From the NCBI RefSeq assembly GCF_003018115.1, contig NZ_CP027457.1: a stretch of DNA of 64,000 nucleotides; one strand, given 5' to 3'. The DNA is from Escherichia coli (GTDB lineage Bacteria; Pseudomonadota; Gammaproteobacteria; Enterobacterales; Enterobacteriaceae). Positions 1 to 13,790 of the stretch are shown here, piece after piece. Below the pieces are notes generated by a model. That model was not told the DNA's origin and made no database searches. It saw nothing but the letters and a program-made list of their open reading frames with translations. Positions within the stretch are counted from its first letter, which is position 1. Each line of letters starts with the position of its first letter. A program made the position numbers and the translations under genes.

Positions 1-331
1 ATTGTGCAGGTCAGCTCGTTTTTAAAGAGTCCGGCCATCATCTTACTGGTACAGACACCATATACTTTGTGACGGTCAGGCTACATATGCACAACTCAAC
101 TTATTCATCTATTTTTTGCTTTAGCATGTCAGTGTTGCTTTCTCGTCGGCGGGTGAGCGGTGACCTGACCTGTCGATAAAGGAACGTAACACGTTTTATG
201 CAACACCCGCATGCGGCAGAAAATTATTGCCGAACGTTTACCCCTGTCAACAAGCTTTACTTTCTGAGGCGCGCCAGCCCGCGAGGAAAACAATCTGAAC
301 ATCAAACAATTAATGACACAAGAAATACGAT

Positions 332-358
332 TAAAGATTTTTTTGTGCATGCCGATAG
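332..358 (+). promoter_or_regulatory. sigma-28 (FliA) type promoter upstream of flxA
   Basis: TAAAGATT (332-339), 11-nt spacer, GCCGATAG (351-358), matching class 3 flagellar promoter consensus TAAAGTTT-N11-GCCGATAA; sits 24 nt upstream of the flxA ATG with AGGAG RBS. Confidence 0.6.
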
Positions 359-381
359 TGCTTTTTTAAAAGGAGAAATCT

Positions 382-714
382 ATGTCTGTCACAATTCAGG
401 GAAATACCTCAACCGTTATTTCAAACAACTCCGCCCCGGAAGGAACATCAGAAATAGCCAAAATCACAAGACAAATTCAGGTGCTGACTGAAAAGCTTGG
501 GAAAATCTCATCGGAAGAGGGGATGACGACACAGCAGAAAAAAGAAATGGCTGCATTGGTACAGAAGCAAATTGAAAGCCTCTGGGCTCAACTGGAGCAG
601 TTGTTAAGGCAGCAGGCAGAGAAAAAGAATGAAGACGCGACAGTTCAGCCTGATAAAAAAGAAGAGAAAAAAGACGATACAAATACCGCTGGCACCATTG
701 ATATTTACGTCTAA
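382..714 (+). CDS. flxA: FlxA, FliA-regulated prophage protein
   Basis: 110-aa ORF MSVTIQGNTSTVISNN... recognised as Qin prophage FlxA; RBS AAGGAG upstream. Confidence 0.85.
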   Translation: MSVTIQGNTSTVISNNSAPEGTSEIAKITRQIQVLTEKLGKISSEEGMTTQQKKEMAALVQKQIESLWAQLEQLLRQQAEKKNEDATVQPDKKEEKKDDTNTAGTIDIYV

Positions 715-728
715 GTGACAGCCGTATT

Positions 729-751
729 GTGGCCCTCATCGGGCCACTTTT
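729..751 (+). terminator. putative hairpin terminator after flxA
   Basis: GTGGCCC-TCATC-GGGCCAC stem-loop followed by TTTTC. Confidence 0.4.
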
Positions 752-879
752 CGCCATCAGCCTTTTCTTTAAAGACATATTATCTTTGTATCATTTCTGA
801 TAGTTAACATTACAAGATATAAGTAATGGACGCACTCCCAATTAGTCTATTTAAATCGCCACGAGTTTAACTGACAACC

Positions 880-2600
880 CATGATCAATTATGAATTGCA
901 ACTATTTCTGTAGTCACTTTTGTGGGGACAGTCCACAAAACTGCCAACTTCCGCTTCTTGCTCTTAGCGGACATTAGCATAGGCTATTTACCATAACGCC
1001 TCATTACGCGCACCGCCCAGACTGACTCAGCGCGTTTCTGGCATATCCCCGGTAAAACAAGTAACAAACCACCCGAAAATGAACACCAGAAACGCGACTT
1101 AAGAATCTACCCTATGAATGGATATGCACTCAACCGAATCGATCTTGGTTTCAATCTTTTTTATCGGGATCAGGCTTCTTTTTAGGTAACTTCGGGGGCT
1201 TAACTTGCTGATGACTTTGCGTTCGGCGCGTAAGCCAGGGATGGTCAGCTTTAGGTTTAACATAGTATTTTGAGCGTAAATCAATACGGGCATTATCCAC
1301 TCGTTCATGGACACTCTTTTCATCATCCAGTGGTATAGGCTCCGGGCCATCAACATACTTTTCCCAGCCCAGCGCTTTCCCGTCATACAGAACGTTAATT
1401 TCACCGTCAAAGTTCTCGCATACAGTAACAACCGAATGCCTAAGTCGATATCCCCGGCCCTCACTGCGTACCTGAAACGCACTGCTTTTGTACTGGAAAG
1501 TGAGATTTTTAGACAGAACGCGCTTCGCCTGTAGGCTGAAGATATAACCCAGTTCCTCTTCAGAATGGTGCACATCAAGATGAGCATTATCAGTAGTACG
1601 AGGCGACGTAGCGAACCGGTTGTTATAGGCTTCAATAAAGGTCGGCAACCATGCATTTGCTGTTTCAATATCACTGATATTCTGAAGCCGCATTTCTTTG
1701 ACCAGCCTGTCCTGTAGTGTCTGATTGGCGCGCTCTACCCGCCCTTTTGCCTGCGGGCTGTTGGCATGGATTGGCTCGATGCCCAGTGTCTTTATCGCAC
1801 GAGTGAACTGGGTCAGCTCACCTTCCCGCTCTGGGTTATTTACCCTGAATATACTGTGTCTATCAGAGTAGAGAGCGAGCGGTACGCCATGATCATTAAG
1901 GTAACCCCGGAGGGTTTCCATGTAAGCCCGGGTTGTTTCAGCAGGCACAAAACGCAACGCCATCAACGCACTGGTGGCATCATCAATGAAAACGATCAGT
2001 GTACATCTGGGGCCTCGATTTTCAAACCAGTCATGAGGTGAGCCATCAATCTGGATCAGTTCACCGTAAGATGGTCGTCGCATGCGGCGTTGATATATAC
2101 GGGCAATTTTACGACGGCGTTCACGCCATAACCCCTCTTCTATCATCCACTTTCTGAGAGTTTCAACGGATAAAGATAAACCGTGTATCTCGCGCAATTT
2201 TTCGCACGCAAACGTAGGTCCAAAATCAGCGTAACGGCCTTTGAGGAGTGAAATTACTGTTGCTCTGAATTCAGTAGAAAAGGAATTATTAGGACGCTTT
2301 CCACGTCGGTGGGAAACCAGACCAGAAGGCCCTTCATTTCTATACCGTTGCACCAGACGTTTAACCTGCCGAATAGAAATGCCAATGCGTGCCGCAGCTT
2401 GTTCCTGAATAATCTGAAGTCGGTGGAGTTCCTTATGACTCATCGTAACAGTCTCTTTGATCATGAAAAATCCCCCAGAGAATTGTCTGGGGACATTTTA
2501 GAATGGTTCAAAGGGGACATTACAGCTTGGTGTTAACAATAGCCTGCTTCTCCGTGCCTTTCGGCACGTAAGAGGCTAACCTACATGTGTCTAGCATGAA
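880..2600 (-). mobile_element. IS481-family-like insertion sequence, boundaries not resolved
   Basis: single 437-aa transposase ORF with N-terminal HTH and rve-type DDE core; interrupts prophage synteny between flxA and the replication module; ends are approximate. Confidence 0.45.
1151..2464 (-). CDS. DDE transposase, IS481-family-like
   Basis: 437 aa; HTH-like N-terminus (ARIGISIRQVKRLVQRY), integrase-core motifs (IDGSPHDWF..., LYSDRHSIF, E in RANQTLQDRL), basic C-terminal tail. Confidence 0.75.
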   Translation of the reverse strand: MIKETVTMSHKELHRLQIIQEQAAARIGISIRQVKRLVQRYRNEGPSGLVSHRRGKRPNNSFSTEFRATVISLLKGRYADFGPTFACEKLREIHGLSLSVETLRKWMIEEGLWRERRRKIARIYQRRMRRPSYGELIQIDGSPHDWFENRGPRCTLIVFIDDATSALMALRFVPAETTRAYMETLRGYLNDHGVPLALYSDRHSIFRVNNPEREGELTQFTRAIKTLGIEPIHANSPQAKGRVERANQTLQDRLVKEMRLQNISDIETANAWLPTFIEAYNNRFATSPRTTDNAHLDVHHSEEELGYIFSLQAKRVLSKNLTFQYKSSAFQVRSEGRGYRLRHSVVTVCENFDGEINVLYDGKALGWEKYVDGPEPIPLDDEKSVHERVDNARIDLRSKYYVKPKADHPWLTRRTQSHQQVKPPKLPKKKPDPDKKD

Positions 2601-2798
2601 ATTGGCCTCAGATTAATGTTAAGCGTCTTGCAGGACGCGTAATGTTAACTGGGGCTTTTCTCTATCTGCCGTTGGTGTCCATGCCCGAGGCAGATAGCCT
2701 CAAGCACCCGCAGTCATTCTACTTAACTAAGATTTCCCCGCAAACCGTTTTTGTCCAGCACAGTAAATATCCAACTAAACCAATGGAGTTCGCTGTAT

Positions 2799-2978
2799 TT
2801 ACCGCCAGTATTCAATGCACATGACCGCCATGAACACCCCTAAAAAAAGGGCATTTATATATCCAAATATTAATATCAAAACATCAACTTTTTCCATATA
2901 CCTTGCTGTGAAGATGATGGGCATACATGATGCGAACAACCAGAACGCAACAAACAAAAACTGCAATGCGTTTTTCAT
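2799..2978 (-). CDS. small hydrophobic protein (59 aa), unknown function
   Basis: ORF MKNALQFLFVAFWLFASCMPIIFTARYMEKVDVLILIFGYINALFLGVFMAVMCIEYWR with two predicted hydrophobic helices; consensus AGGAGG RBS 5 nt upstream of the ATG on the minus strand. Confidence 0.4.
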   Translation of the reverse strand: MKNALQFLFVAFWLFASCMPIIFTARYMEKVDVLILIFGYINALFLGVFMAVMCIEYWR

Positions 2979-3245
2979 TATTCCTCCTACAATCAATGTG
3001 CAATTACATTTAAACACACCTCAATTTGGCCGGACATATAAATATCTAAACCAGAAAAAATCACTTACATAGCGTTACAAACTCTTTAGTCTAAAGGTTC
3101 ATCGTAAAACATTCCCCATACTTATCAGTCCGTTCCGCGCCAGGTAGCTCATTGCCTTATCTGGCAACCTGTAATCAGGTTTCCGCTTTTTCAGTTGGCT
3201 GGTCGTTTAACCGACATAGTTAATCCATTAATCTAGTTGCCGGAT

Positions 3246-3660
3246 GTTGGTGGATTTTCGCGTTTTAGTTGTTCATAAAAGTGCACAGCTTTAACCAGTT
3301 CTTCTGATGTAACTGGGACTGGTGAGGCAGTGAATAAGGCCTGAATTTGATAGTTCGGCCTGTCGTTACAATCCTCTTTTTTCGGTACATATTTCCAGTC
3401 ACCAGACCACTACTTCCCCTGAAAGTCCGTAACGCCTTTTTTCACGTAGCGATATCGCCATGCCACTGGTTTTGCTTGCCCCGCCGTTTCATGCCCTTCC
3501 TGATAATTAATCTCGCTCATTCATCGCCCCACTCATCACAATATGCTTCGACCGGAGTTTTTCCCGCTTCATAGTCATCACGCTAGGATTCGACATCAGC
3601 AGCACTTCCACCGCGTAACTCACCATAGTCCATTAATAGTTCATCCCGCTCTTCAAAACT
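3246..3660 (-). pseudogene. degraded prophage gene remnants (short ORFs broken by stops and frame changes)
   Basis: minus-strand translation gives runs such as MSEINYQEGHETAGQAKPVAWRYRYVKKGVTDFQGK and WSGDWKYVPKKEDCNDRPNYQIQALF... in shifting frames; continues across the IS66 target site. Confidence 0.25.
3653..3660. repeat. target site duplication TCAAAACT (left copy) of the IS66-family element
   Basis: identical 8-mer immediately outside both inverted repeats. Confidence 0.8.
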
Positions 3661-3741
3661 GTAAGCGTCGTCTCAGCACCGTCTGGCAGATCCTGAAATT
3701 CCTGAGAGAATAGTGGACACCAAATATGGTGGACGCAATCC

Positions 3742-4146
3742 ATGAAATCATTAACCGCAGTGCGTAAAAAAAGCCCTAATTATCCCGTTGAGTTCAAAAT
3801 CAAAATGGTTGAACTCTCGCATCGACCAGAGATCTCCGTAGCGCAACTCGCTCGTGAGCATGGGATCAACGATAATTTGCTGTTCAAGTGGCGCCAGTAC
3901 TGGCGCGAAGGAAAACTACGTCCTCCTTCAACAACAGAAAACAACGTGCCTGAGCTGCTCCCGATAACACTTGATGCCGAAGATGTTGTCCCTACAACCT
4001 CCCCCCGGTCACAACCTGTAGCTGCTGCGACACCTGAATCACTCAATATCAGCTGTGAAGTGACGTTCCGGCACGGATCACTCCGTCTGAATGGTGCCAT
4101 CAGCGAAAATATCCTGAACCTGCTGATACGGGAGCTCAAACGTTGA
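3742..4146 (+). CDS. IS66-family TnpA (orf1)
   Basis: 134 aa, HTH-like N-terminus; first ORF of the IS66 triad. Confidence 0.8.
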   Translation: MKSLTAVRKKSPNYPVEFKIKMVELSHRPEISVAQLAREHGINDNLLFKWRQYWREGKLRPPSTTENNVPELLPITLDAEDVVPTTSPRSQPVAAATPESLNISCEVTFRHGSLRLNGAISENILNLLIRELKR

Positions 4147-4490
4147 TCCCATTACCATCAGGGACAAAGATCTGGCTGGTCGCTGGCATCACCGATATGA
4201 GAAACGGCTTCAACGGCCTGGCGGCAAAGGTGCAGACGACGCTGAAAGACGATCCGATGTCAGGTCACGTTTTTATCTTCCGTGGGCGTAATGGCAGTCA
4301 GGTAAAGCTCCTCTGGTCTACCGGCGATGGACTGTGTCTGCTGACCAAACGGCTGGAGCGCGGCCGCTTCGCCTGGCCGTCAGCCCGGGATGGCAAAGTG
4401 TTCCTCACACCGGCACAGCTGGCGATGCTGCTGGAAGGTATCGACTGGCGGCAGCCTAAAAGACTGCTTACGTCCCTGACTATGTTGTAA
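4143..4490 (+). CDS. IS66-family TnpB (orf2)
   Basis: 115 aa MIPLPSGTKIWLVAGITDMRNGFNGLAAKVQ...; overlaps the tnpA stop. Confidence 0.8.
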   Translation: MIPLPSGTKIWLVAGITDMRNGFNGLAAKVQTTLKDDPMSGHVFIFRGRNGSQVKLLWSTGDGLCLLTKRLERGRFAWPSARDGKVFLTPAQLAMLLEGIDWRQPKRLLTSLTML

Positions 4491-4538
4491 GCCTCTTTAT
4501 CCTGGTCGACGCTGAATGAGCCTGGTAATATACCCGGT

Positions 4539-6074
4539 ATGAGCAGCTCACTTCCTGACGATATCAATGCACTGAAACGTCTCCTTGCCGAACAGGAGGC
4601 GCTGAACCGTGCCCTGCAGGAAAAGCTGAACGAGCGTGAACGCGAAATAGACCATCTGCAGGCACAGCTGGATAAGCTGCGCCGGATGAACTTCGGCAGC
4701 CGCTCGGAAAAAGTCTCCCGTCGTATCGCACAGATGGAAGCTGACCTGAAGGCACTTCAGAAAGAAAGTGATACCCTTACCGGTCGGGTTGACGACCCGG
4801 CCGTGCAGCGCCCGCTGCGTCAAACCCGCACCCGCAAACCGTTCCCCGAATCACTCCCCCGCGATGAAAAACGGCTGCTGCCGGCAGCGTCATGCTGCCC
4901 GGAATGTGGAGGCTCGCTGAGCTATCTGGGTGAGGATGCCGCCGAACAGCTGGAGCTGATGCGCAGCGCCTTCCGGGTTATCCGGACTGTACGTGAAAAG
5001 CATGCCTGTACTCAGTGCGATGCCATCGTGCAGGCCCCCGCGCCTTCACGGCCCATCGAGCGGGGTATCGCAGGACCGGGGCTGCTGGCCCGCGTGCTGA
5101 TCTCAAAGTATGCAGAGCACACCCCGCTGTACCGCCAGTCTGAAATGTACGGCCGCCAGGGCGTGGAGCTGAGTCGTTCACTGCTGTCGGGCTGGGTGGA
5201 TGCATGCTGCCGGCTACTGTCACCGCTGGAAGAAGCGCTTCAGGACTATGTGCTGACTGACGGTAAGCTCCATGCTGATGACACGCCTGTCCCGGTGCTG
5301 TTGCCAGGCAATAAGAAAACGAAGACCGGGCGGTTATGGACCTACGTTCGTGACGACCGTAACGCCGGGTCAACGCTGGCGCCGGCGGTGTGGTTCGCTT
5401 ACAGCCCGGACAGAAAAGGCATCCATCCGCAGACCCATCTTGCGGGGTTCAGTGGTGTACTGCAGGCGGATGCATACGCCGGGTTCAACGAGCTGTACCG
5501 GGATGGCCGGATAACGGAAGCCGCCTGTTGGGCTCACGCCCGCCGTAAAATCCACGATGTGCACGTTCGCACCCCGTCAGCCCTGACGGAGGAAGCGCTG
5601 AAACGGATCGGCGAACTGTACGCCATCGAGGCAGAGATAAGGGGAATGACGGCGGAGCAGCGCCTTGCCGAACGTCAGTTGAAAACGAAACCGCTGCTGA
5701 AATCCCTGGAAAGCTGGCTGCGTGAAAAGATGAAAACCCTGTCGCGACACTCAGAACTGGCGAAAGCGTTCGCATACGCCCTGAACCAGTGGCCGGCGCT
5801 GACGTACTATGCAGATGATGGCTGGGCTGAGGCGGACAATAACATCGCTGAAAATGCGTTGCGGATGGTCAGTCTGGGCCGCAAAAACTACCTGTTCTTC
5901 GGTTCGGATCATGGAGGAGAGCGGGGAGCGCTGCTGTACAGCCTGATCGGGACGTGCAAACTGAACGGAGTGGAGCCAGAAAGCTACCTCCGCTATGTCC
6001 TTGACGTCATAGCCGACTGGCCGATAAACCGGGTCGGCGAACTGCTCCCCCTGGCGCGTAGCACTGCCGACTGA
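4539..6074 (+). CDS. IS66-family transposase TnpC (orf3)
   Basis: 511 aa with N-terminal coiled-coil, CxxC pairs (CCPECG, CTQCD) and DDE-type core typical of IS66 transposases. Confidence 0.85.
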
Positions 6075-6115
6075 ATAACACATCCCCGTCAATACGGTTC
6101 TTGCTGCACGCTTAC

Positions 6116-6123
6116 TCAAAACT
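6116..6123. repeat. target site duplication TCAAAACT (right copy) of the IS66-family element
   Basis: identical 8-mer immediately outside both inverted repeats. Confidence 0.8.
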
Positions 6124-6593
6124 GATGTTATATTTAGCTGAACAAAAATCAGCCACTTTGTTCTTCCTCATCGTCTTTTATTTCGTGGTATGAGTAATTG
6201 CAGTAGTTAAAGAAAATTTCTTATGCTCCGTCATGAATTTCCTCAGGTGTTGCGTCATCGTCCACTTCGAATACATCCTCAAAATCTCCACCAGCTATTC
6301 CCGTTTCAATAATAATTTTGAACTTTCGCATTTCACTACCGCCCTTTCGGGCGGCCTCCTGATGTTCTGAGGGTGCAGAAATCCATCCGGTTAAGGATTA
6401 AATTTTATTTACAGAACTGAATTTAATTATTCAGATATACGTATCTGTAGCCTTACGAATCTACTCACTGGATGCCTCTTTCATAAAAATAATCCAGTGG
6501 GTTTTATCGTTTTTTCCCTGTTCGTTGACAGATAACAGGTTTTCTGTCTGTCAGTGCCAGAATCTGGCTTACCGGTATTTGCGTTTCATTCCA

Positions 6594-6950
6594 TTAAAAA
6601 ATCAGAACGCCGTGCGGCCTCAACACCCGAAAGGCTTCTTTAAATCTCTGTCGCGAATCATCACGCCAGGCATCTTTATTCAGCCGTCCATATTTCTTTC
6701 CCATCCAGGCGTTATCACCAACACTCTCAAGATGCGGAGGGTCTAATACAACCATCGAAAAAGATGCGTCTGCAAATGATAATGCACGAAAATCTGCGAT
6801 AATGTCAGGGCTGATAATCAAGCGTCTCCCATTGCGTAATGTGTATCCTTCTTTTCTGATATCGCTGAATATCGCCCGTTCGTCAGACTTATCGAACCAG
6901 AACATGCGGCTGCCACAGCACATATCAAGAATGGTTGCCGGTGCACTCAC
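6594..6950 (-). CDS. small SAM-dependent methyltransferase-like protein (118 aa), possibly truncated or orphan
   Basis: G-loop-like motif ILDMCCGSRMF and a DPPH motif (DPPY-like amino-methyltransferase motif IV); start overlaps the stop of the upstream ORF by 4 nt. Confidence 0.4.
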   Translation of the reverse strand: MSAPATILDMCCGSRMFWFDKSDERAIFSDIRKEGYTLRNGRRLIISPDIIADFRALSFADASFSMVVLDPPHLESVGDNAWMGKKYGRLNKDAWRDDSRQRFKEAFRVLRPHGVLIF

Positions 6951-7369
6951 TGCGCCACGTCCTGAAAATTACCCTGATAGAAAGCCAGTATGCGCTGCAT
7001 AACTTCGCTCTTCCGGCACTCGCGACAGATTATGTTTAGGCGACTGTCGTAGCGACGTATTTCTCCGTCAGGTGATGACCAGATAAGGTCCGGATCAACC
7101 ACAGCAGGTTTCTTCACCTTTGCCCTCGAGAGTTTTTTGCGGGCGTTTTGCCAGTCCTTACGCGCCTGTTCAGAGGGGAATAACCCGTAGCCGGAGTTGT
7201 ATACATCGCCACTGGCTACCAGCTCTCTGGCAAGAACGCTCATCAGATATCTAGTCGCACCTGTTTTAGCTTCCAGTTGCCGTAACGTCTCACGGCCGCT
7301 CTGGCGCACGAGTTCCACCACCTGCCATTTAATTTTTTCCCGCTCTTCTTGTGTAAAAACTTTTGCCAC
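6947..7369 (-). CDS. hypothetical prophage protein (140 aa)
   Basis: ORF immediately downstream of the replication gene on the same strand; no recognisable family from sequence alone. Confidence 0.4.
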   Translation of the reverse strand: MAKVFTQEEREKIKWQVVELVRQSGRETLRQLEAKTGATRYLMSVLARELVASGDVYNSGYGLFPSEQARKDWQNARKKLSRAKVKKPAVVDPDLIWSSPDGEIRRYDSRLNIICRECRKSEVMQRILAFYQGNFQDVAQ

Positions 7370-7409
7370 AAGTCCCCCTTAAAATTACCTCATGACCTGA
7401 AATCAACAC

Positions 7410-8375
7410 TTATCCTCTGAAACCAGGCGGAATTTCTGTATCCGGTTCAGAAATATGATTAACACAACGCTGTACAGGTGAACGTCCCAGGCGGATGACC
7501 AGTTCGTCCCATTTTTCGCGGAGCTTTGACGGGCTCATGATGTTTTTTACCCAGAATGGATCTCGCTGAACCCGACCAAACATTTCGCAAATTTGTCTGT
7601 GGCTTCTGCCATCCAGCATCCGCATTGTGCGCACGTCATTGGCCCAGGCAGTCCAGTTAGGCTCTTTTGGTCGCATGATCTCGCCATCATCACTGGCTGC
7701 CTGTTCGTAGAGACCCACGATCCGCCCCCAGATCCACTGCGCACACGCCAAATCCTCCCTGCTACCCCACTGGCGTTTTTTCGCACTAAACACAACCGCG
7801 TCGGAGTTCCGGGTTAAAAAATCCTGTTCAGTCGTCTGCGGGTCCGGTTGCGAAGCTTCCGGACGAAAAGTGTTTTTATTCTCTGTAGTAATCTCTGTTG
7901 TATTCTCTGTAAGATCATCAGGCCATTTTGACCCGATGACATTGGGTCGTTTTGAACCAATGGAGCGTTTCATTTTGACCTCTTCCATCGTGTCATTTTG
8001 ACCTGATGGAGCGGCGCATTTTGAACCGATGGATTCGCTCAATTTGCCACCATCTAAAAGCTCGCTCCCATAGTTGATCGTGTAGAAATTGGTCATATCG
8101 CGCTTTGATTTATTGAGCTTTTCACAACGCAAAAGCCCCAGCGTTTTCAGACTTGCAAACGCGCGCTTTAACGTTGACTCTGACCAGAATGGGAACTGTT
8201 CCAGCCATTGTTCCGTTGTGTTATAAATCCAGCGAACACCATCACATTCCATGCCGGAGTTGGTATCTCTCAACCAGTAGTGCAGTTGTTGCAAAACAAT
8301 GGCTTCGTTTAAGCCAATTTTCATTGCCAGCTGCGTGTTTATAACCAGTGGACGTTCAGCAAAAAGAAGGCTCAT
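7410..8375 (-). CDS. phage replication initiator, lambda O-like (replisome organiser)
   Basis: N-terminal region resembles the phage O N-terminal DNA-binding domain; iterons embedded in the coding sequence (protein repeats IGSK); start uncertain: TTG at 8429, ATG at 8375 or ATG at 8324. Confidence 0.6.
   Translation of the reverse strand: MSLLFAERPLVINTQLAMKIGLNEAIVLQQLHYWLRDTNSGMECDGVRWIYNTTEQWLEQFPFWSESTLKRAFASLKTLGLLRCEKLNKSKRDMTNFYTINYGSELLDGGKLSESIGSKCAAPSGQNDTMEEVKMKRSIGSKRPNVIGSKWPDDLTENTTEITTENKNTFRPEASQPDPQTTEQDFLTRNSDAVVFSAKKRQWGSREDLACAQWIWGRIVGLYEQAASDDGEIMRPKEPNWTAWANDVRTMRMLDGRSHRQICEMFGRVQRDPFWVKNIMSPSKLREKWDELVIRLGRSPVQRCVNHISEPDTEIPPGFRG
7924..8054. repeat. iteron array (putative prophage origin of replication) inside the O-like gene
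   Basis: five to six copies of CATTTTGA(C/A)C(N)GATGG-like units at about 23-24 bp spacing (near 7924, 7949, 7971, 7994, 8017, 8041), flanked at 7861-7923 by ATTCTCTGT repeats and an AT-rich stretch. Confidence 0.6.
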
Positions 8376-8877
8376 AATTCCATCCAGCTTTTTGTTGGTA
8401 TTGCTGTCGATACGCAAGTTTGAAAGCAATTGCTTTTTCTATAAGTTCGTCAGTTTCACGATCCACTACGGCAGGATCAGCAAAAAGCAGTCCGGACTCC
8501 ACCACATCGCCATATTCTTTGTTTAACCCGGCGATCATGCACGTGATGCTTTTTCCGTCAGTAATTTCACGATACAACCTGAAATCATTAATCCGGATAG
8601 CCTCCATAATTGCAGGCACTAGCGCCGTGAACTTTTCACGCTTATCCCTGGTGTCGATAGCCTTCCAGCGTTCAAATATCTTCACTCGATTAACGCCAAG
8701 CGCTCGCTGATCAATCGCGCCACCTTCATATGTGACACGCTGAACATCGATGTTCGGGCGCTCTTTCAAAGCCCAGAATGCTTCAGTGATTAATATCGTC
8801 GCCTGCTCCTGTGTCATTCCTGGTCGACATATCCAGGCATCCAGAGCCTCACGAGCCTGTTCAGGAGTGATTTTCAT
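8356..8877 (-). CDS. hypothetical prophage early protein (173 aa)
   Basis: ORF between the cro-like dicC and the O-like gene on the same strand; ATG start. Confidence 0.45.
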   Translation of the reverse strand: MKITPEQAREALDAWICRPGMTQEQATILITEAFWALKERPNIDVQRVTYEGGAIDQRALGVNRVKIFERWKAIDTRDKREKFTALVPAIMEAIRINDFRLYREITDGKSITCMIAGLNKEYGDVVESGLLFADPAVVDRETDELIEKAIAFKLAYRQQYQQKAGWNYEPSFC

Positions 8878-9091
8878 TGTTCAACCGCCCCGCCCGCTTC
8901 GTCTTACGATATTCATCATAAACTTTGGGATCATACTGAAGCTCCCCGCCAGATGCCTCCTGTAGACGCATCGCGCGACCTTCGGGAACTAAATCCCCTT
9001 TCCAGCTATAAAGCGAAGCCAAACGAATACCTGCTGCTTGTGCAAGTTTTGTTTTTGAACCGAAATACAAAAGAGCGTCAGTTTTAAGCAT
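8861..9091 (-). CDS. dicC: DicC, Cro-like repressor of division inhibition
   Basis: 76 aa MLKTDALLYFGSKTKLAQAAGIRLASLYSWKGDL...; divergent from dicA. Confidence 0.85.
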   Translation of the reverse strand: MLKTDALLYFGSKTKLAQAAGIRLASLYSWKGDLVPEGRAMRLQEASGGELQYDPKVYDEYRKTKRAGRLNNENHS

Positions 9092-9174
9092 TTAAAACAC
9101 CTTTATTGTTAGTCATAACTAACAAGATAGATGTTAACAAAAACATAGTCAATACGATTTAGCATTAGCTAACT
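9092..9174. promoter_or_regulatory. dicA-dicC divergent promoter and operator region
   Basis: repeated TTAG(T/C)-N-CTAA-type half-site motifs (TTAGTCATAACTAACAA, TTAGCATTAGCTAACT); similar motifs recur at 9600-9670. Confidence 0.5.
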
Positions 9175-9582
9175 ATGGAAACAAAAAATTTAACTATCGG
9201 CGAACGCATCAGGTATCGTCGGAAAAACCTCAAACACACCCAAAGGTCTCTTGCTAAAGCCCTGAAAATCTCCCATGTGTCTGTATCACAATGGGAACGG
9301 GGTGATAGTGAACCTACAGGGAAGAACCTTTTTGCCCTCAGCAAAGTATTGCAATGCTCACCAACATGGATTCTATTTGGCGATGAAGACAAGCAACCAA
9401 CACCACCTGTTGAGAAGCCAGTTGCCTTATCCCCCAAAGAACTAGAGCTCCTTGAGCTGTTTAATGCACTGCCAGAATCAGAACAGGATACCCAGCTCGC
9501 CGAAATGCGAGCTCGAGTAAAAAACTTCAATAAACTCTTTGAAGAATTACTAAAAGCCCGTCAGCGGACAAATAAAAGATAA
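9175..9582 (+). CDS. dicA: DicA, cI-like HTH repressor
   Basis: 135 aa METKNLTIGERIRYRRKNLKHTQRSLAKALKISHVSVSQWERGDSEPTG... Confidence 0.9.
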   Translation: METKNLTIGERIRYRRKNLKHTQRSLAKALKISHVSVSQWERGDSEPTGKNLFALSKVLQCSPTWILFGDEDKQPTPPVEKPVALSPKELELLELFNALPESEQDTQLAEMRARVKNFNKLFEELLKARQRTNKR

Positions 9583-9748
9583 CATCATCAATGAGTTATC
9601 TTTTACCACATCAATTATGTTAGCTATAGCATACAAAATCACTTGACCGATATGTTAGTCATGGCTAATCTTGTTTGCATCAACACACCGCACGGTGTTC
9701 TCAGCAAACAGTTCCGCTACCCCAGCGTTAAGGGGAAATGAGGTCAGC

Positions 9749-9904
9749 ATGGATACTATCGATCTTGGCAACAACGAATCTCTGGTGTACGGCGTGTTTC
9801 CAAACCAGGACGGCACGTTCACCGCAATGACGTATACCAAAAGCAAAACGTTTAAAACCGAAAATGGTGCCCGTCGCTGGCTGGAAAGAAACTCAGGTGA
9901 GTGA
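9749..9904 (+). CDS. ydfA: YdfA small prophage protein
   Basis: 51 aa MDTIDLGNNESLVYGVFPNQDGTFTAMTYTKSKTFKTENGARRWLERNSGE. Confidence 0.8.
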   Translation: MDTIDLGNNESLVYGVFPNQDGTFTAMTYTKSKTFKTENGARRWLERNSGE

Positions 9905-9905
9905 T

Positions 9906-10034
9906 ATGGATTTCGACACAATCATGGAAAAGGCTTACGAAGAATACTTCGAAGGCCTTGCCGAAGGCGAAGAAGCTCTCAGCTTCAGTGAGTTTAAACA
10001 GGCGCTTTCCAGTTCGGCAAAATCTAACGGCTGA
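9906..10034 (+). CDS. ydfB: YdfB small prophage protein
   Basis: 42 aa MDFDTIMEKAYEEYFEGLAEGEEALSFSEFKQALSSSAKSNG; below the ORF-track length cutoff. Confidence 0.75.
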   Translation: MDFDTIMEKAYEEYFEGLAEGEEALSFSEFKQALSSSAKSNG

Positions 10035-10063
10035 TAAGCGAAACAGCACCGCGAGGAATCAGT

Positions 10064-10282
10064 ATGCAGAAACGAGAACCCGTCATCATCGCGCCAGACT
10101 ATACCGATGATGAACTTTATGAGTGGATGCGCCAGAAAATTAATGCAGCGCAGGATCTGAAATGGGCTAATGAAGCCAGGGCTAAGCAGGCTGAAAATCT
10201 GTCCGCTCTGGAGCAGGATATCACCAATCTGGAAAAAGCAGCGGCATTAAGCATTGCCAGAATGATTACATACCCGCGTTAG
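10064..10282 (+). CDS. ydfC: YdfC prophage protein
   Basis: 72 aa MQKREPVIIAPDYTDDELYEWMRQKINAAQDLKWANEARAKQAENL... Confidence 0.8.
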   Translation: MQKREPVIIAPDYTDDELYEWMRQKINAAQDLKWANEARAKQAENLSALEQDITNLEKAAALSIARMITYPR

Positions 10283-10622
10283 TAGCTAATCAACAAAGCT
10301 AAGGTTAGTAATTAAGGAGTTCTCCACGGGTGAGGTGGAGTGCGTGCGCCGGACACGGGTGCGCATCCGGAACTGACAGTTTACTGAAAGGATATTTCCC
10401 TGAAAAGTCAGACCATAACGCGAAAGCGCACGGCGAGGTAGCTGGTTCATAGATAGCCTGTCGTTAAATTTTCGTCGACCGTGCGCTTCCGGTTGTGGCA
10501 ACCCGCGAAATGGCGCGGCGGTAAGTATGGCGGGGTTATTCCTTCCCCGTTGAGGACACCGGGTTGTCAGGTTGACCATACGCTTAAGTGACAACCCCGC
10601 TGCAACGCCCTCTGTTATCAAT

Positions 10623-10675
10623 TTTCTGGTGACGTTTGGCGGTATCAGTTTTACTCCGTGACTGCTCTGCCGCCC
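10623..10675 (+). ncRNA. dicF: DicF small RNA (ftsZ-targeting, processed from the dicA operon transcript)
   Basis: sequence TTTCTGGTGACGTTTGGCGGTATCAGTTTTACTCCGTGACTGCTCTGCCGCCC followed by a T-run, between ydfC and dicB. Confidence 0.8.
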
Positions 10676-10849
10676 TTTTTAAAGTGAATTTTGTGATGTG
10701 GTGAATGCGGCTGAGCGCACGCGGAACAGTTAAAACCAAAAACAGTGTTATGGGTGGATTCTCTGTATCCGGCGTTAATTGTTAACTAGTTAACGTCACC
10801 TGGAGGCACCAGGCACTGCATCACAAAATTCATTGTTGAGGACGCGATA

Positions 10850-11038
10850 ATGAAAACGTTATTACCAAACGTTAATACGTCTGAAGGTTGTTTTGAAATT
10901 GGTGTCACTATCAGTAACCCAGTATTTACTGAAGATGCCATTAACAAGAGAAAACAAGAACGGGAGCTATTAAATAAAATATGCATTGTTTCAATGCTGG
11001 CTCGTTTACGTCTGATGCCAAAAGGATGTGCACAATGA
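10850..11038 (+). CDS. dicB: DicB cell-division inhibitor
   Basis: 62 aa MKTLLPNVNTSEGCFEIGVTISNPVFTEDAINKRKQERELLNKICIVSMLARLRLMPKGCAQ. Confidence 0.9.
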   Translation: MKTLLPNVNTSEGCFEIGVTISNPVFTEDAINKRKQERELLNKICIVSMLARLRLMPKGCAQ

Positions 11039-11226
11039 ATTCAGCATTTGTGCTTGTTCTGACAGTTTTTCTTGTTTCCGGAGAGCCAGTTGATATTGCA
11101 GTCAGTGTTCACAGGACAATGCAGGAGTGTATGACTGCAGCAACCGAACAGAAAATTCCCGGTAACTGTTACCCGGTCGATAAAGTTATTCACCAGGATA
11201 ATATCGAAATCCCGGCAGGTCTTTAA
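11035..11226 (+). CDS. ydfD: YdfD small membrane (lysis-type) protein
   Basis: 63 aa MNSAFVLVLTVFLVSGEPVDIAVSVHRTMQECMTAATEQKIP...; ATGA overlap with the dicB stop. Confidence 0.8.
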   Translation: MNSAFVLVLTVFLVSGEPVDIAVSVHRTMQECMTAATEQKIPGNCYPVDKVIHQDNIEIPAGL

Positions 11227-11318
11227 AACAGTTCCGTAATAAATATCCGGTTTCATTCTTATATGCCAGCAATGGCAGGGATTTGTTCATCCTTAAATCT
11301 GTCATGAGGTTAAAACAA

Positions 11319-13790
11319 ATGAGTAAAGTCTTTATTTGCGCCGCTATTCCTGACGAACTGGCAACAAGGGAAGAAGGCGCTGTGGCTGTAGCCACAGCCA
11401 TTGAAGCTGGCGACGAACGCCGTGCTCGAGCAAAATTTCACTGGCAATTCCTGGAACATTATCCGGCTGCTCAGGACTGCGCTTATAAATTTATTGTCTG
11501 CGAGGATAAACCTGGCATACCCCGCCCTGCCCTCGATTCATGGGATGCTGAATATATGCAGGAAAACCGCTGGGATGAGGAGTCTGCTTCTTTTGTCCCG
11601 GTTGAGACTGAATCCGATCCGATGAACGTCACTTTTGACAAGCTGGCCCCTGAAGTACAGAACGCTGTCATGGTTAAGTTCGACACATGTGAAAACATCA
11701 CCGTTGATATGGTTATTAGCGCACAGGAATTGTTGCAGGAAGACATGGCAACATTCGACGGACATATCGTTGAAGCGTTGATGAAAATGCCAGAAGTTAA
11801 CGCCATGTATCCGGAGCTTAAGTTGCACGCCATTGGGTGGGTTAAGCATAAATGTATTCCTGGTGCTAAATGGCCCGAAATTCAGGCAGAGATGCGCATC
11901 TGGAAAAAACGTCGCGAAGGTGAACGCAAGGAAACCGGAAAATACACGTCTGTTGTTGATCTCGCCCGCGCCAGAGCCAATCAACAGTACACTGAAAATT
12001 CAACAGGAAAAATCAGCCCGGTCATTGCTGCCATTCATCGCGAATACAAGCAGACATGGAAAACACTGGATGACGAACTGGCCTACGCTCTCTGGCCTAG
12101 TGATGTGGATGCCGGAAACATTGACGGCAGCATCCATCGCTGGGCAAAAAAAGAAGTTATCGACAACGACCGCGAAGACTGGAAGCGTATCTCGGCATCA
12201 ATGCGCAAACAGCCTGATGCCCTTCGCTACGACCGCCAAACTATTTTTGGCCTTGTCCGTGAGCGTCCGATCGACATTCACAAAGATCCCGTAGCACTGA
12301 ACAAATATATCTGCGAATACCTGACGACAAAGGGCGTGTTTGAGAATGAAGAAACAGACCTGGGCACTGTTGATGTTCTCCAGTCATCAGAAACACAAAC
12401 TGATGCAGTGGAAACTGAGGTATCTGATATCCCAAAAAATGAAACCGCGCCGGAAGCTGAACCATCTGTAGAGCGTGAGGGGCCGTTCTATTTCCTCTTC
12501 GCAGATAAGGACGGAGAAAAATACGGTCGCGCAAACAAACTCTCTGGTCTGGATAAGGCACTGGCTGCTGGCGCCACTGAAATCACAAAAGAAGAATATT
12601 TTGCCCGAAAAAATGGCACATACACGGGCTTACCGCAAAATGTAGATACCGCTGAAGATTCAGAACAACCAGAGCCGATAAAAGTTACCGCTGACGAAGT
12701 AAACAAAATTATGCAGGCAGCCAATATCAGCCAGCCTGACGCCGATAAGTTGCTTGCTGCATCACGTGGTGAATTTGTTGAAGGGATTAGTGACCCGAAT
12801 GATCCGAAATGGGTTAAGGGGCTCCAGACCCGCGATTCTGTGAACCAGAACCAGCATGAATCGGAACGGAACTACCAAAAAGCGGAACAAAACAGTCCAA
12901 ATGCGTTACAAAACGAGCCAGAAACGAAACAGCCTGAACCAGTAGCGCAACAGGAAGTGGAAAAAGTCTGCACCGCCTGCGGTCAGACCGGCGGCGGCAA
13001 CTGCCCTGATTGTGGCGCGGTGATGGGCGACGCAACATACCAAGAAACATTCGATGAAGAGTATCAGGTTGAAGTTCAGGAAGATGATCCGGAGGAAATG
13101 GAAGGCGCTGAACATCCACACAAGGAGAACACTGGCGGCAATCAGCATCACAATAGCGATAATGAAACTGGCGAGACGGCAGATCACCCAATTAAGGTGA
13201 ACGGTCATCACGAAATCACATCCACCAGCAGGACGTGTGACCATCTAATGATCGACCTTGAAACCATGGGAAAAAATCCTGATGCCCCGATCATCTCAAT
13301 AGGTGCAATATTTTTCGATCCGCAAACCGGAGATATGGGACCGGAATTTAGTAAGACTATCGATCTGGAAACTGCTGGCGGAGTCATTGATCGGGACACC
13401 ATTAAATGGTGGCTTAAGCAATCACGCGAAGCGCAATCTGCCATTATGACCGATGAAATCCCGTTAGATGATGCACTGTTACAATTGCGAGAATTTATCG
13501 ACGAAAACTCCGGTGAATTTTTTGTTCAGGTTTGGGGAAATGGAGCCAACTTCGACAACACGATTTTGCGCCGTTCATACGAACGGCAGGGGATCCCCTG
13601 CCCGTGGCGTTACTACAACGATCGCGATGTACGCACAATCGTTGAGCTGGGGAAAGCCATAGACTTCGATGCCAGAACGGCTATTCCATTCGAAGGTGAG
13701 CGCCATAATGCACTTGATGACGCCCGTTACCAGGCAAAATACGTTTCAGTTATCTGGCAAAAACTGATCCCGAGTCAGGCTGATTCTTAA
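11319..13790 (+). CDS. ydfE: YdfE-family protein with C-terminal DnaQ-like (DEDDh) 3'-5' exonuclease domain
   Basis: N-terminus MSKVFICAAIPDELATREEG... matches YdfE; acidic low-complexity linker; CxxC-x8-CxxC ribbon (CTACGQTGGGNCPDCG); C-terminal exonuclease motifs MIDLETMG, WGNGANFD, HNALDDARY. Confidence 0.8.
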   Translation: MSKVFICAAIPDELATREEGAVAVATAIEAGDERRARAKFHWQFLEHYPAAQDCAYKFIVCEDKPGIPRPALDSWDAEYMQENRWDEESASFVPVETESDPMNVTFDKLAPEVQNAVMVKFDTCENITVDMVISAQELLQEDMATFDGHIVEALMKMPEVNAMYPELKLHAIGWVKHKCIPGAKWPEIQAEMRIWKKRREGERKETGKYTSVVDLARARANQQYTENSTGKISPVIAAIHREYKQTWKTLDDELAYALWPSDVDAGNIDGSIHRWAKKEVIDNDREDWKRISASMRKQPDALRYDRQTIFGLVRERPIDIHKDPVALNKYICEYLTTKGVFENEETDLGTVDVLQSSETQTDAVETEVSDIPKNETAPEAEPSVEREGPFYFLFADKDGEKYGRANKLSGLDKALAAGATEITKEEYFARKNGTYTGLPQNVDTAEDSEQPEPIKVTADEVNKIMQAANISQPDADKLLAASRGEFVEGISDPNDPKWVKGLQTRDSVNQNQHESERNYQKAEQNSPNALQNEPETKQPEPVAQQEVEKVCTACGQTGGGNCPDCGAVMGDATYQETFDEEYQVEVQEDDPEEMEGAEHPHKENTGGNQHHNSDNETGETADHPIKVNGHHEITSTSRTCDHLMIDLETMGKNPDAPIISIGAIFFDPQTGDMGPEFSKTIDLETAGGVIDRDTIKWWLKQSREAQSAIMTDEIPLDDALLQLREFIDENSGEFFVQVWGNGANFDNTILRRSYERQGIPCPWRYYNDRDVRTIVELGKAIDFDARTAIPFEGERHNALDDARYQAKYVSVIWQKLIPSQADS

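Follow-up and report, generated by a model that had tools for sequence, protein, structure and literature searches.

Remains of a three-gene accessory cassette, interrupted by an IS66-family element, in a Qin-type prophage of Escherichia coli

Introduction

What is the protein-like but broken sequence that flanks an IS66-family insertion in a lambdoid prophage of Escherichia coli, and was it broken before the insertion or by it? The stretch of DNA analysed, referred to here as the window, comprises 64,000 nucleotides of contig NZ_CP027457.1 (RefSeq assembly GCF_003018115.1). A sequence-only reading of it had proposed that the minus strand of 3246-3660 holds coding remnants that had decayed before the insertion sequence (IS) arrived. 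The interpretation favored here, with a probability of about 0.93, is that 3246-3660 and its counterpart past the IS represent a defunct accessory cassette of three genes in a Qin-type lambdoid prophage. As a case of pseudogene decay in a well-known cryptic prophage, it is ordinary. Two of the genes (designated C and A below) are already known as pseudogenes from PGAP annotation, which records neither the separate lesions nor how they are ordered relative to the IS.

Organization of the remnant

Translation of the minus strand across 3246-3660 bears out the protein-like segments described earlier. One frame reads ...SFEERDELLMDYGELRGGSAADVES*RDDYEAGKTPVEAYCDEWGDE* and another reads MSEINYQEGHETAGQAKPVAWRYRYVKKGVTDFQGK*WSGDWKYVPKKEDC...ENPPTSGN*, with asterisks for stops. 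An amber stop had been noted in this interval and is present, but it is not the only one: two are found there, at 3583-3585 and 3410-3412, with a third just beyond at 3233-3235. Frame changes had also been attributed to decay. One change does occur, but it is the natural ATGA overlap of genes B and C (3517-3520), which is also found in intact relatives and is not a frameshift mutation. The true frameshift is a 4-nt deletion at 3201/3202, outside 3246-3660, and the remnant itself extends to 3099.

When the IS and one copy of its target-site duplication are removed, the minus strand becomes continuous and contains three tightly packed small genes, designated A, B and C, whose lesions were mapped base by base against intact relatives, with gene C aligned at the nucleotide level to the intact copy in L009. 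A plus-strand ORF at 3347-3574 (75 aa, TTG start) was not considered further, being antisense to genes B and C.

Gene A is a 60-codon pseudogene at 6149-6331 on the minus strand, assigned to DUF7167/phrog_1997 by alignment, PHROG match and PGAP annotation. Codon 37, which is AAA (Lys37) in L002, L004, L005 and L009, is an ochre TAA in the window (6221-6223). The ORF reported on the far side of the IS, previously placed at 6233-6346 with a length of 37 aa, is instead 36 aa long and lies at 6221-6331; it is the N-terminal part of gene A (the first 36 codons), ended by the AAA to TAA change and part of the same decay. With the stop masked, the gene A translation matches phrog_1997 with an E-value of 2.4e-28. 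The corresponding Pfam score (DUF7167, PF23768; 55.1 bits against a cut-off of 24.4) is that of an intact relative with 90% nucleotide identity, the window copy itself having been run against PHROGs only. In strain W5-6, PGAP annotates coordinates equal to 6149-6331 of the window as 'DUF7167 family protein; internal stop' (D9V54_RS25930).

The GC hairpin mentioned earlier near this ORF does exist, at 6338-6355, adjoining an AGGAGG at 6355-6360 on the same minus strand. The gene A ATG follows the AGGAGG at a distance of 24 nt (6329-6360); the hairpin, which has a 7-bp GC stem and a GAAA loop, lies between them, and its folding would place the two at normal spacing. Genes 38 and 25 of phage T4 have a similar hairpin that brings the Shine-Dalgarno sequence and the start codon into normal spacing. 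The gene A hairpin is retained in almost all relatives, with a single G-C to A-T double change at 3 loci.

Gene B is the remnant of a 58-aa phrog_519 protein, and is divided between the two sides of the IS, again on the minus strand. Its 5' part (6116-6156) begins with a GTG at 6154-6156 that overlaps the end of gene A and replaces the ATG of intact relatives, and its 3' part (3517-3660) comprises codons ~12-58 and a TGA at 3517-3519. The reading path thus runs from 6156 to 6124 and then from 3660 to 3517, and reconstruction without the IS places the insertion in codons 11-14. The amber at 3583-3585 is again codon 37, with TGG (Trp37) in L002, L005 and L009 and TAG in L004. The masked translation matches phrog_519 with an E-value of 6.1e-11. 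Neither part of gene B (3517-3660 and 6116-6156) is annotated by PGAP at the W5-6 and E. coli C loci.

Gene C is the most heavily damaged of the three. This remnant of a 171-aa phrog_660 protein runs on the minus strand from an ATG at 3518-3520 to its natural TGA at 3099-3101. Alignment to intact homologues identifies the first amber (3410-3412) as codon 37, a position that is mainly proline in 120 intact homologues (Pro 97, Gln 9, Met 8, Ser 3). An in-frame deletion of 90 nt (30 codons) follows at junction 3248/3249, between short AATCCA repeats (ENPP and DNPL in L009), and removes the residues VETGxWKDAVDWVLKEACCAVILGKADNPx. Alignment to L009 also identifies a second amber at 3233-3235, where CAA (Gln) has become TAG, and the 4-nt deletion at 3201/3202, past which the homologous reading ...TTSQLKKRKPDYRLPDKAMSYLARNGLISMGNVLR* resumes in another frame and continues to the original TGA. 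The masked translation matches phrog_660 with an E-value of 8.8e-29, and the two halves of the second translated segment match consecutive parts of one profile (positions 34-68 and 72-118). At coordinates equal to 3099-3520 in the identical W5-6 copy, PGAP records a 'hypothetical protein; frameshifted; internal stop' (D9V54_RS25220).

A slippage hotspot lies in gene C codons 26-29, where the run of six adenines at 3436-3441 differs in length among copies (A5, A6 and A8). Slippage in this run accounts for the frameshifted 85-aa ORF of phage vB_EcoS-640R1 and for the frameshifts in L086 and L087. The annotated 85-aa 'hypothetical protein' of L002 was considered as a gene C model and rejected, as it is an out-of-frame read from a +2 slip in the same run.

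Intact cassettes in related phages

The earlier reading left room for the fragments to be chance ORFs with no intact counterpart. Intact 60-, 58- and 171-aa genes, in the same order and with the same overlaps, are instead found in many lambdoid prophages and phages. Searches of phage records with megablast and tblastn recovered the same DNA: in vB_EcoS-640R1, genes A and B are open (60 aa and 58 aa); in ArgO145, they correspond to gp15 and gp14; and in vB_EcoM-606R7, gene C is open as a 119-aa frame. With gene C as the query, a protein search gave 643 clusters, which fall into length classes of 119, 148, 170 and 171 aa. The C-terminal sequence matching the window past 3246-3660 comes from the 171-aa class. 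On a contig with the 171-aa form, the order is replication genes, DUF1627, DUF977, a 118-aa gene, DUF7167 (60 aa), the 58-aa gene, the 171-aa gene, hok, Rem and Q. Wherever they are readable in IMG/VR contigs, a sample picked by gene C match, genes A and B carry no stop or frameshift, and in dozens of viral contigs the cassette has 92-100% nucleotide identity to the intact reference L009.

Intact cassettes (L009 3653-4516, UViG_2617270956_000008, ArgO145 and vB_EcoS-640R1) resemble the window in gene order, overlaps and the AGGAGG-hairpin arrangement, at about 90% nucleotide identity, but their frames are open and free of stops, whereas the window copy is disabled. ArgO145 differs in having another ead/Ea22-like protein in the third position, and its cassette has ead/Ea22-like and other small genes as neighbors instead of following the replication genes.

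The proteins encoded by genes A and B are very acidic (pI ~4.05). Gene C consists of three modules that recombine freely in proteins of 60-390 aa, some of which have DUF551 or ead/Ea22 domains. It shares modules with ead/Ea22-like (PF13935) and DUF551 (PF04448) proteins such as P0074 and P0009 and takes the same slot after the 58-aa gene, but it is not a member of either family by those families' own models. A Pfam scan of the 119-aa intact form of gene C found no domain, and the precomputed Pfam record for the 171-aa form lists none; among the ancestral genes, Pfam recognizes DUF7167 alone. An NCBIfam search with P0035 gave no match. PDB sequence searches with the ancestral genes produced nothing credible, the low E-values being only to designed TIM barrels, with no stretch past threshold. 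In PHROGs, phrog_1997, phrog_519 and phrog_660 are all labelled 'unknown function', and a full-text literature search for 'DUF7167' and 'PhiR42' returned no paper. The intact cassette, which is widespread in lambdoid phages and under purifying selection, is a worthier experimental target than the remnant.

The IS66-family element and the order of events

The element that divides gene B, recognized by its terminal repeats, its ORFs and the PGAP names in W5-6, spans 2455 bp (3661-6115) on the plus strand. It is flanked by perfectly matching 8-bp copies of TCAAAACT (3653-3660 on the left and 6116-6123 on the right), and both of its ends begin GTAAGCGT. The ORF list gives three plus-strand frames of 134, 115 and 511 aa (3742-4146, 4143-4490 and 4539-6074), and the same insertion in W5-6 is annotated with an IS66 accessory protein TnpB and an IS66-like ISEc22 family transposase. 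In ISfinder, the IS66 family is defined by an 8-bp target duplication, terminal repeats starting GTAA and a tnpA-tnpB-tnpC layout. The window element shares the 8-bp duplication, ends starting GTAAGCG and this layout with the ISEc22-like members of the family, and has no unusual features. The W5-6 copy of this IS has lost an internal segment and carries a frameshift; as that copy is already decaying, the insertion is not brand new.

The stops predate the insertion. PhiR42_1 has 99.9% identity to the window on both IS flanks, with an empty target site and all three first stops in identical context, which upholds the earlier suggestion of older gene decay followed by IS66 insertion. E. coli C, also free of the IS, has the gene B and gene C stops. 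The extent of the two features agrees with this order, since the 661-nt remnant is found with at least 99% identity in 520 complete E. coli records, against 96 of 5426 complete genomes for the IS junction. The stops themselves arose separately, because two phages each carry one of them: vB_EcoM-606R7 has the gene B amber only, and vB_EcoS-640R1 has the gene C amber only, together with its +2 A-run slip.

These comparisons show the homology to intact genes, the lesions and the order of events. In the Qin lineage, each cassette gene first gained a nonsense mutation; gene C also lost 90 nt, gained its second amber and lost 4 nt; and the IS66-family element later entered gene B in one sub-lineage. 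The remnants would yield no full-length product and probably do nothing, and they may persist because the defective prophage passes on with the chromosome and is deleted only slowly.

The shared stop position

The first stops of genes A, B and C (6221-6223, 3583-3585 and 3410-3412) all fall at codon 37, exactly 108 nt past each start. Under a model of independent hits, such agreement has a probability of ~7e-5 to 1e-4, a value calculated post hoc. It is treated here as a coincidence because the mutation types differ, the lineages of origin differ, a single haplotype is involved and the gene C ORF is broken again in several copies. Even so, decay, the best explanation of the locus, leaves the shared codon 37 unaccounted for.

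It is also conceivable that the stops are not lethal, either because they are read through (by a suppressor or in a programmed manner) or because three 36-residue N-terminal peptides are functional in a domesticated prophage. Along with the shared position, such a reading could draw on the triple-stop haplotype, which is widespread and nearly invariant, and on the intact start codons and gene A ribosome-binding region. It is nonetheless very unlikely. ARAGORN finds no tRNA or tmRNA gene in the 64-kb window, so a suppressor tRNA was rejected, and a single suppressor would not suffice for two kinds of stop (TAA and TAG). Beyond its first stop, gene C carries three more lesions, a frameshift among them; in 96 genomes the IS divides gene B; and E. 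coli C and K-12 have lost genes A and B in part or entirely. The putative gene C peptide fares no better, as in six of 28 copies A-run slippage shifts the frame inside its 36-codon ORF, and the separate origin of the stops, seen in the two phages, also tells against this reading. With mixed stops, a frameshift and deletion in gene C and a gene B split by an IS, the locus does not fall within the class of read-through genes.

Selection for the position itself, by which the Qin lineage would have kept three 36-residue N-terminal peptides or silenced a harmful cassette at a set point, is a highly improbable reason for the agreement. Recurrent mutation or a hotspot at codon 37 was considered and rejected, as all 28 IMG/VR contigs with the gene B amber represent the single Qin triple-stop haplotype. 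The vB_EcoM-606R7 amber is accompanied by two nearby derived SNPs in common with the window, which argues for common descent rather than recurrence.

Reality of the lesions and selective constraint

Sequencing or assembly errors in this one genome could in principle produce in-frame stops and a frameshift, and the A-run at gene C codons 26-29 does vary in length between records, so that part of that variation could be error. As an account of the lesions this is scarcely credible, since identical stop contexts recur in independent records (PhiR42_1, W5-6, 28 IMG/VR contigs and, for the gene B and gene C stops, E. coli C), and many complete genomes, sequenced in different laboratories, have this region with 100% identity. 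A further idea, that non-coding prophage DNA happens to have open frames here and that no ancestral gene exists, can be dismissed given PHROG and Pfam matches down to E = 1e-28, the many clusters homologous to gene C, and the intact viral copies close to L009 with their low dN/dS.

A dN/dS of 0.10-0.18 between intact copies indicates purifying selection on the intact family. The value for the window against intact copies is 0.18-0.28, although the numbers are small; as it is only modestly raised, most of the divergence would have accrued while the genes were still constrained. At 60 columns that are at least 95% conserved, window gene C departs from the consensus at six, compared with a median of 0 and a maximum of 5 among the 120 intact homologues (again small numbers), and each of the six departures is located past the first amber. 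Both measures lean towards relaxed constraint in the window copy, with very little variation within the Qin lineage.

The Qin prophage and its decay in other strains

By its sequence, the element that carries the cassette appears to be the Qin (Kim) cryptic prophage, with the cassette between the replication genes and the hok/Q region of this Qin-type lambdoid prophage. The ORFs of FlxA (382-714) and DicC (8861-9091) are present, and an Rfam search of the first 12 kb found only sok (2538-2709) and the DicF RNA (RF00039, 76.7 bits, 10624-10675), with nothing in 3099-3660 or 6116-6400. A segment of E. coli C with dicC, dicA and dicB (L003 4737-8284) is 99.97% identical to window 8453-12000. In K-12, 1646024-1647358 is 100% identical to window 1-1335 and 1647357-1650844 is 99.9% identical to window 8598-12085, window 1336-8597 having been deleted. 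Qin of K-12 MG1655 is therefore collinear with the window on both sides (flxA; dicC/dicA/DicF), but lacks the cassette, the IS66 element, the methyltransferase, the DUF977 gene and replication gene O, and has its own remnants ydfW, ydfX, ydfE and intQ. In E. coli C, 6199-8452 is deleted and an ISSen4 is inserted, with a pseudogene annotation (B6N50_RS23910).

Qin is reported in ~48% of strains and ranges in size from 11 to 97 kb, and its stepwise decay by point mutation, IS insertion and deletion has been described (PMC6379469); the pattern in the window is alike. The locus is a clean and datable example of such erosion, in which nonsense mutations, small deletions and an IS are followed by large deletions in K-12 and E. 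coli C.

Independent damage at the same locus is seen in L120 (IMGVR_UViG_2703718827_000004), L112, L110 and L100. In these four, gene A has received a 2.5-kb insertion that duplicated 8 bp (window 6235-6242), another IS66-family element, 85% identical, sits at ~3166, and either 3628-8597 or 1653-3221 has been deleted.

Neighboring features and database annotation

A promoter and terminator scan of 2500-6700 gave counts no higher than those in shuffled sequence. The sok antitoxin RNA match on the minus strand at 2538-2709 is full-length (RF01794, 104 bits), and the hok toxin ORF is cut at 2538/2539, where the sequence passes into the end of an ISNCY element, so that only the leader and antisense part of this toxin-antitoxin locus survives. 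That element has a 437-aa ISNCY-family transposase ORF on the minus strand (1151-2464), an identical copy of which is called incomplete by PGAP. The K-12 gene ydfW represents the last 49 codons of this ORF (window 1151-1300), and the K-12 deletion starts inside it, at 1336.

A 59-aa ORF on the minus strand at 2799-2978 is predicted to form two hydrophobic helices, and its ribosome-binding site, AGGAGG, is strong. It is unannotated by PGAP, and ON470612 calls the opposite strand 'hornerin'; its homologues are confined to close relatives in E. coli and Shigella, and it belongs to no family.

The 36-39-aa 'hypothetical proteins' annotated at the cassette locus in some phage records are pseudogene fragments. 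More broadly, PV340562.1 (PhiR42_1), ON470580.1 and ON470612.1 have pseudogene fragments or out-of-frame reads annotated as 'hypothetical proteins' of 29-85 aa. The sequence submitted as the complete phage genome PhiR42_1 is that of a Qin-type element, which has relBE, flxA and transposases.
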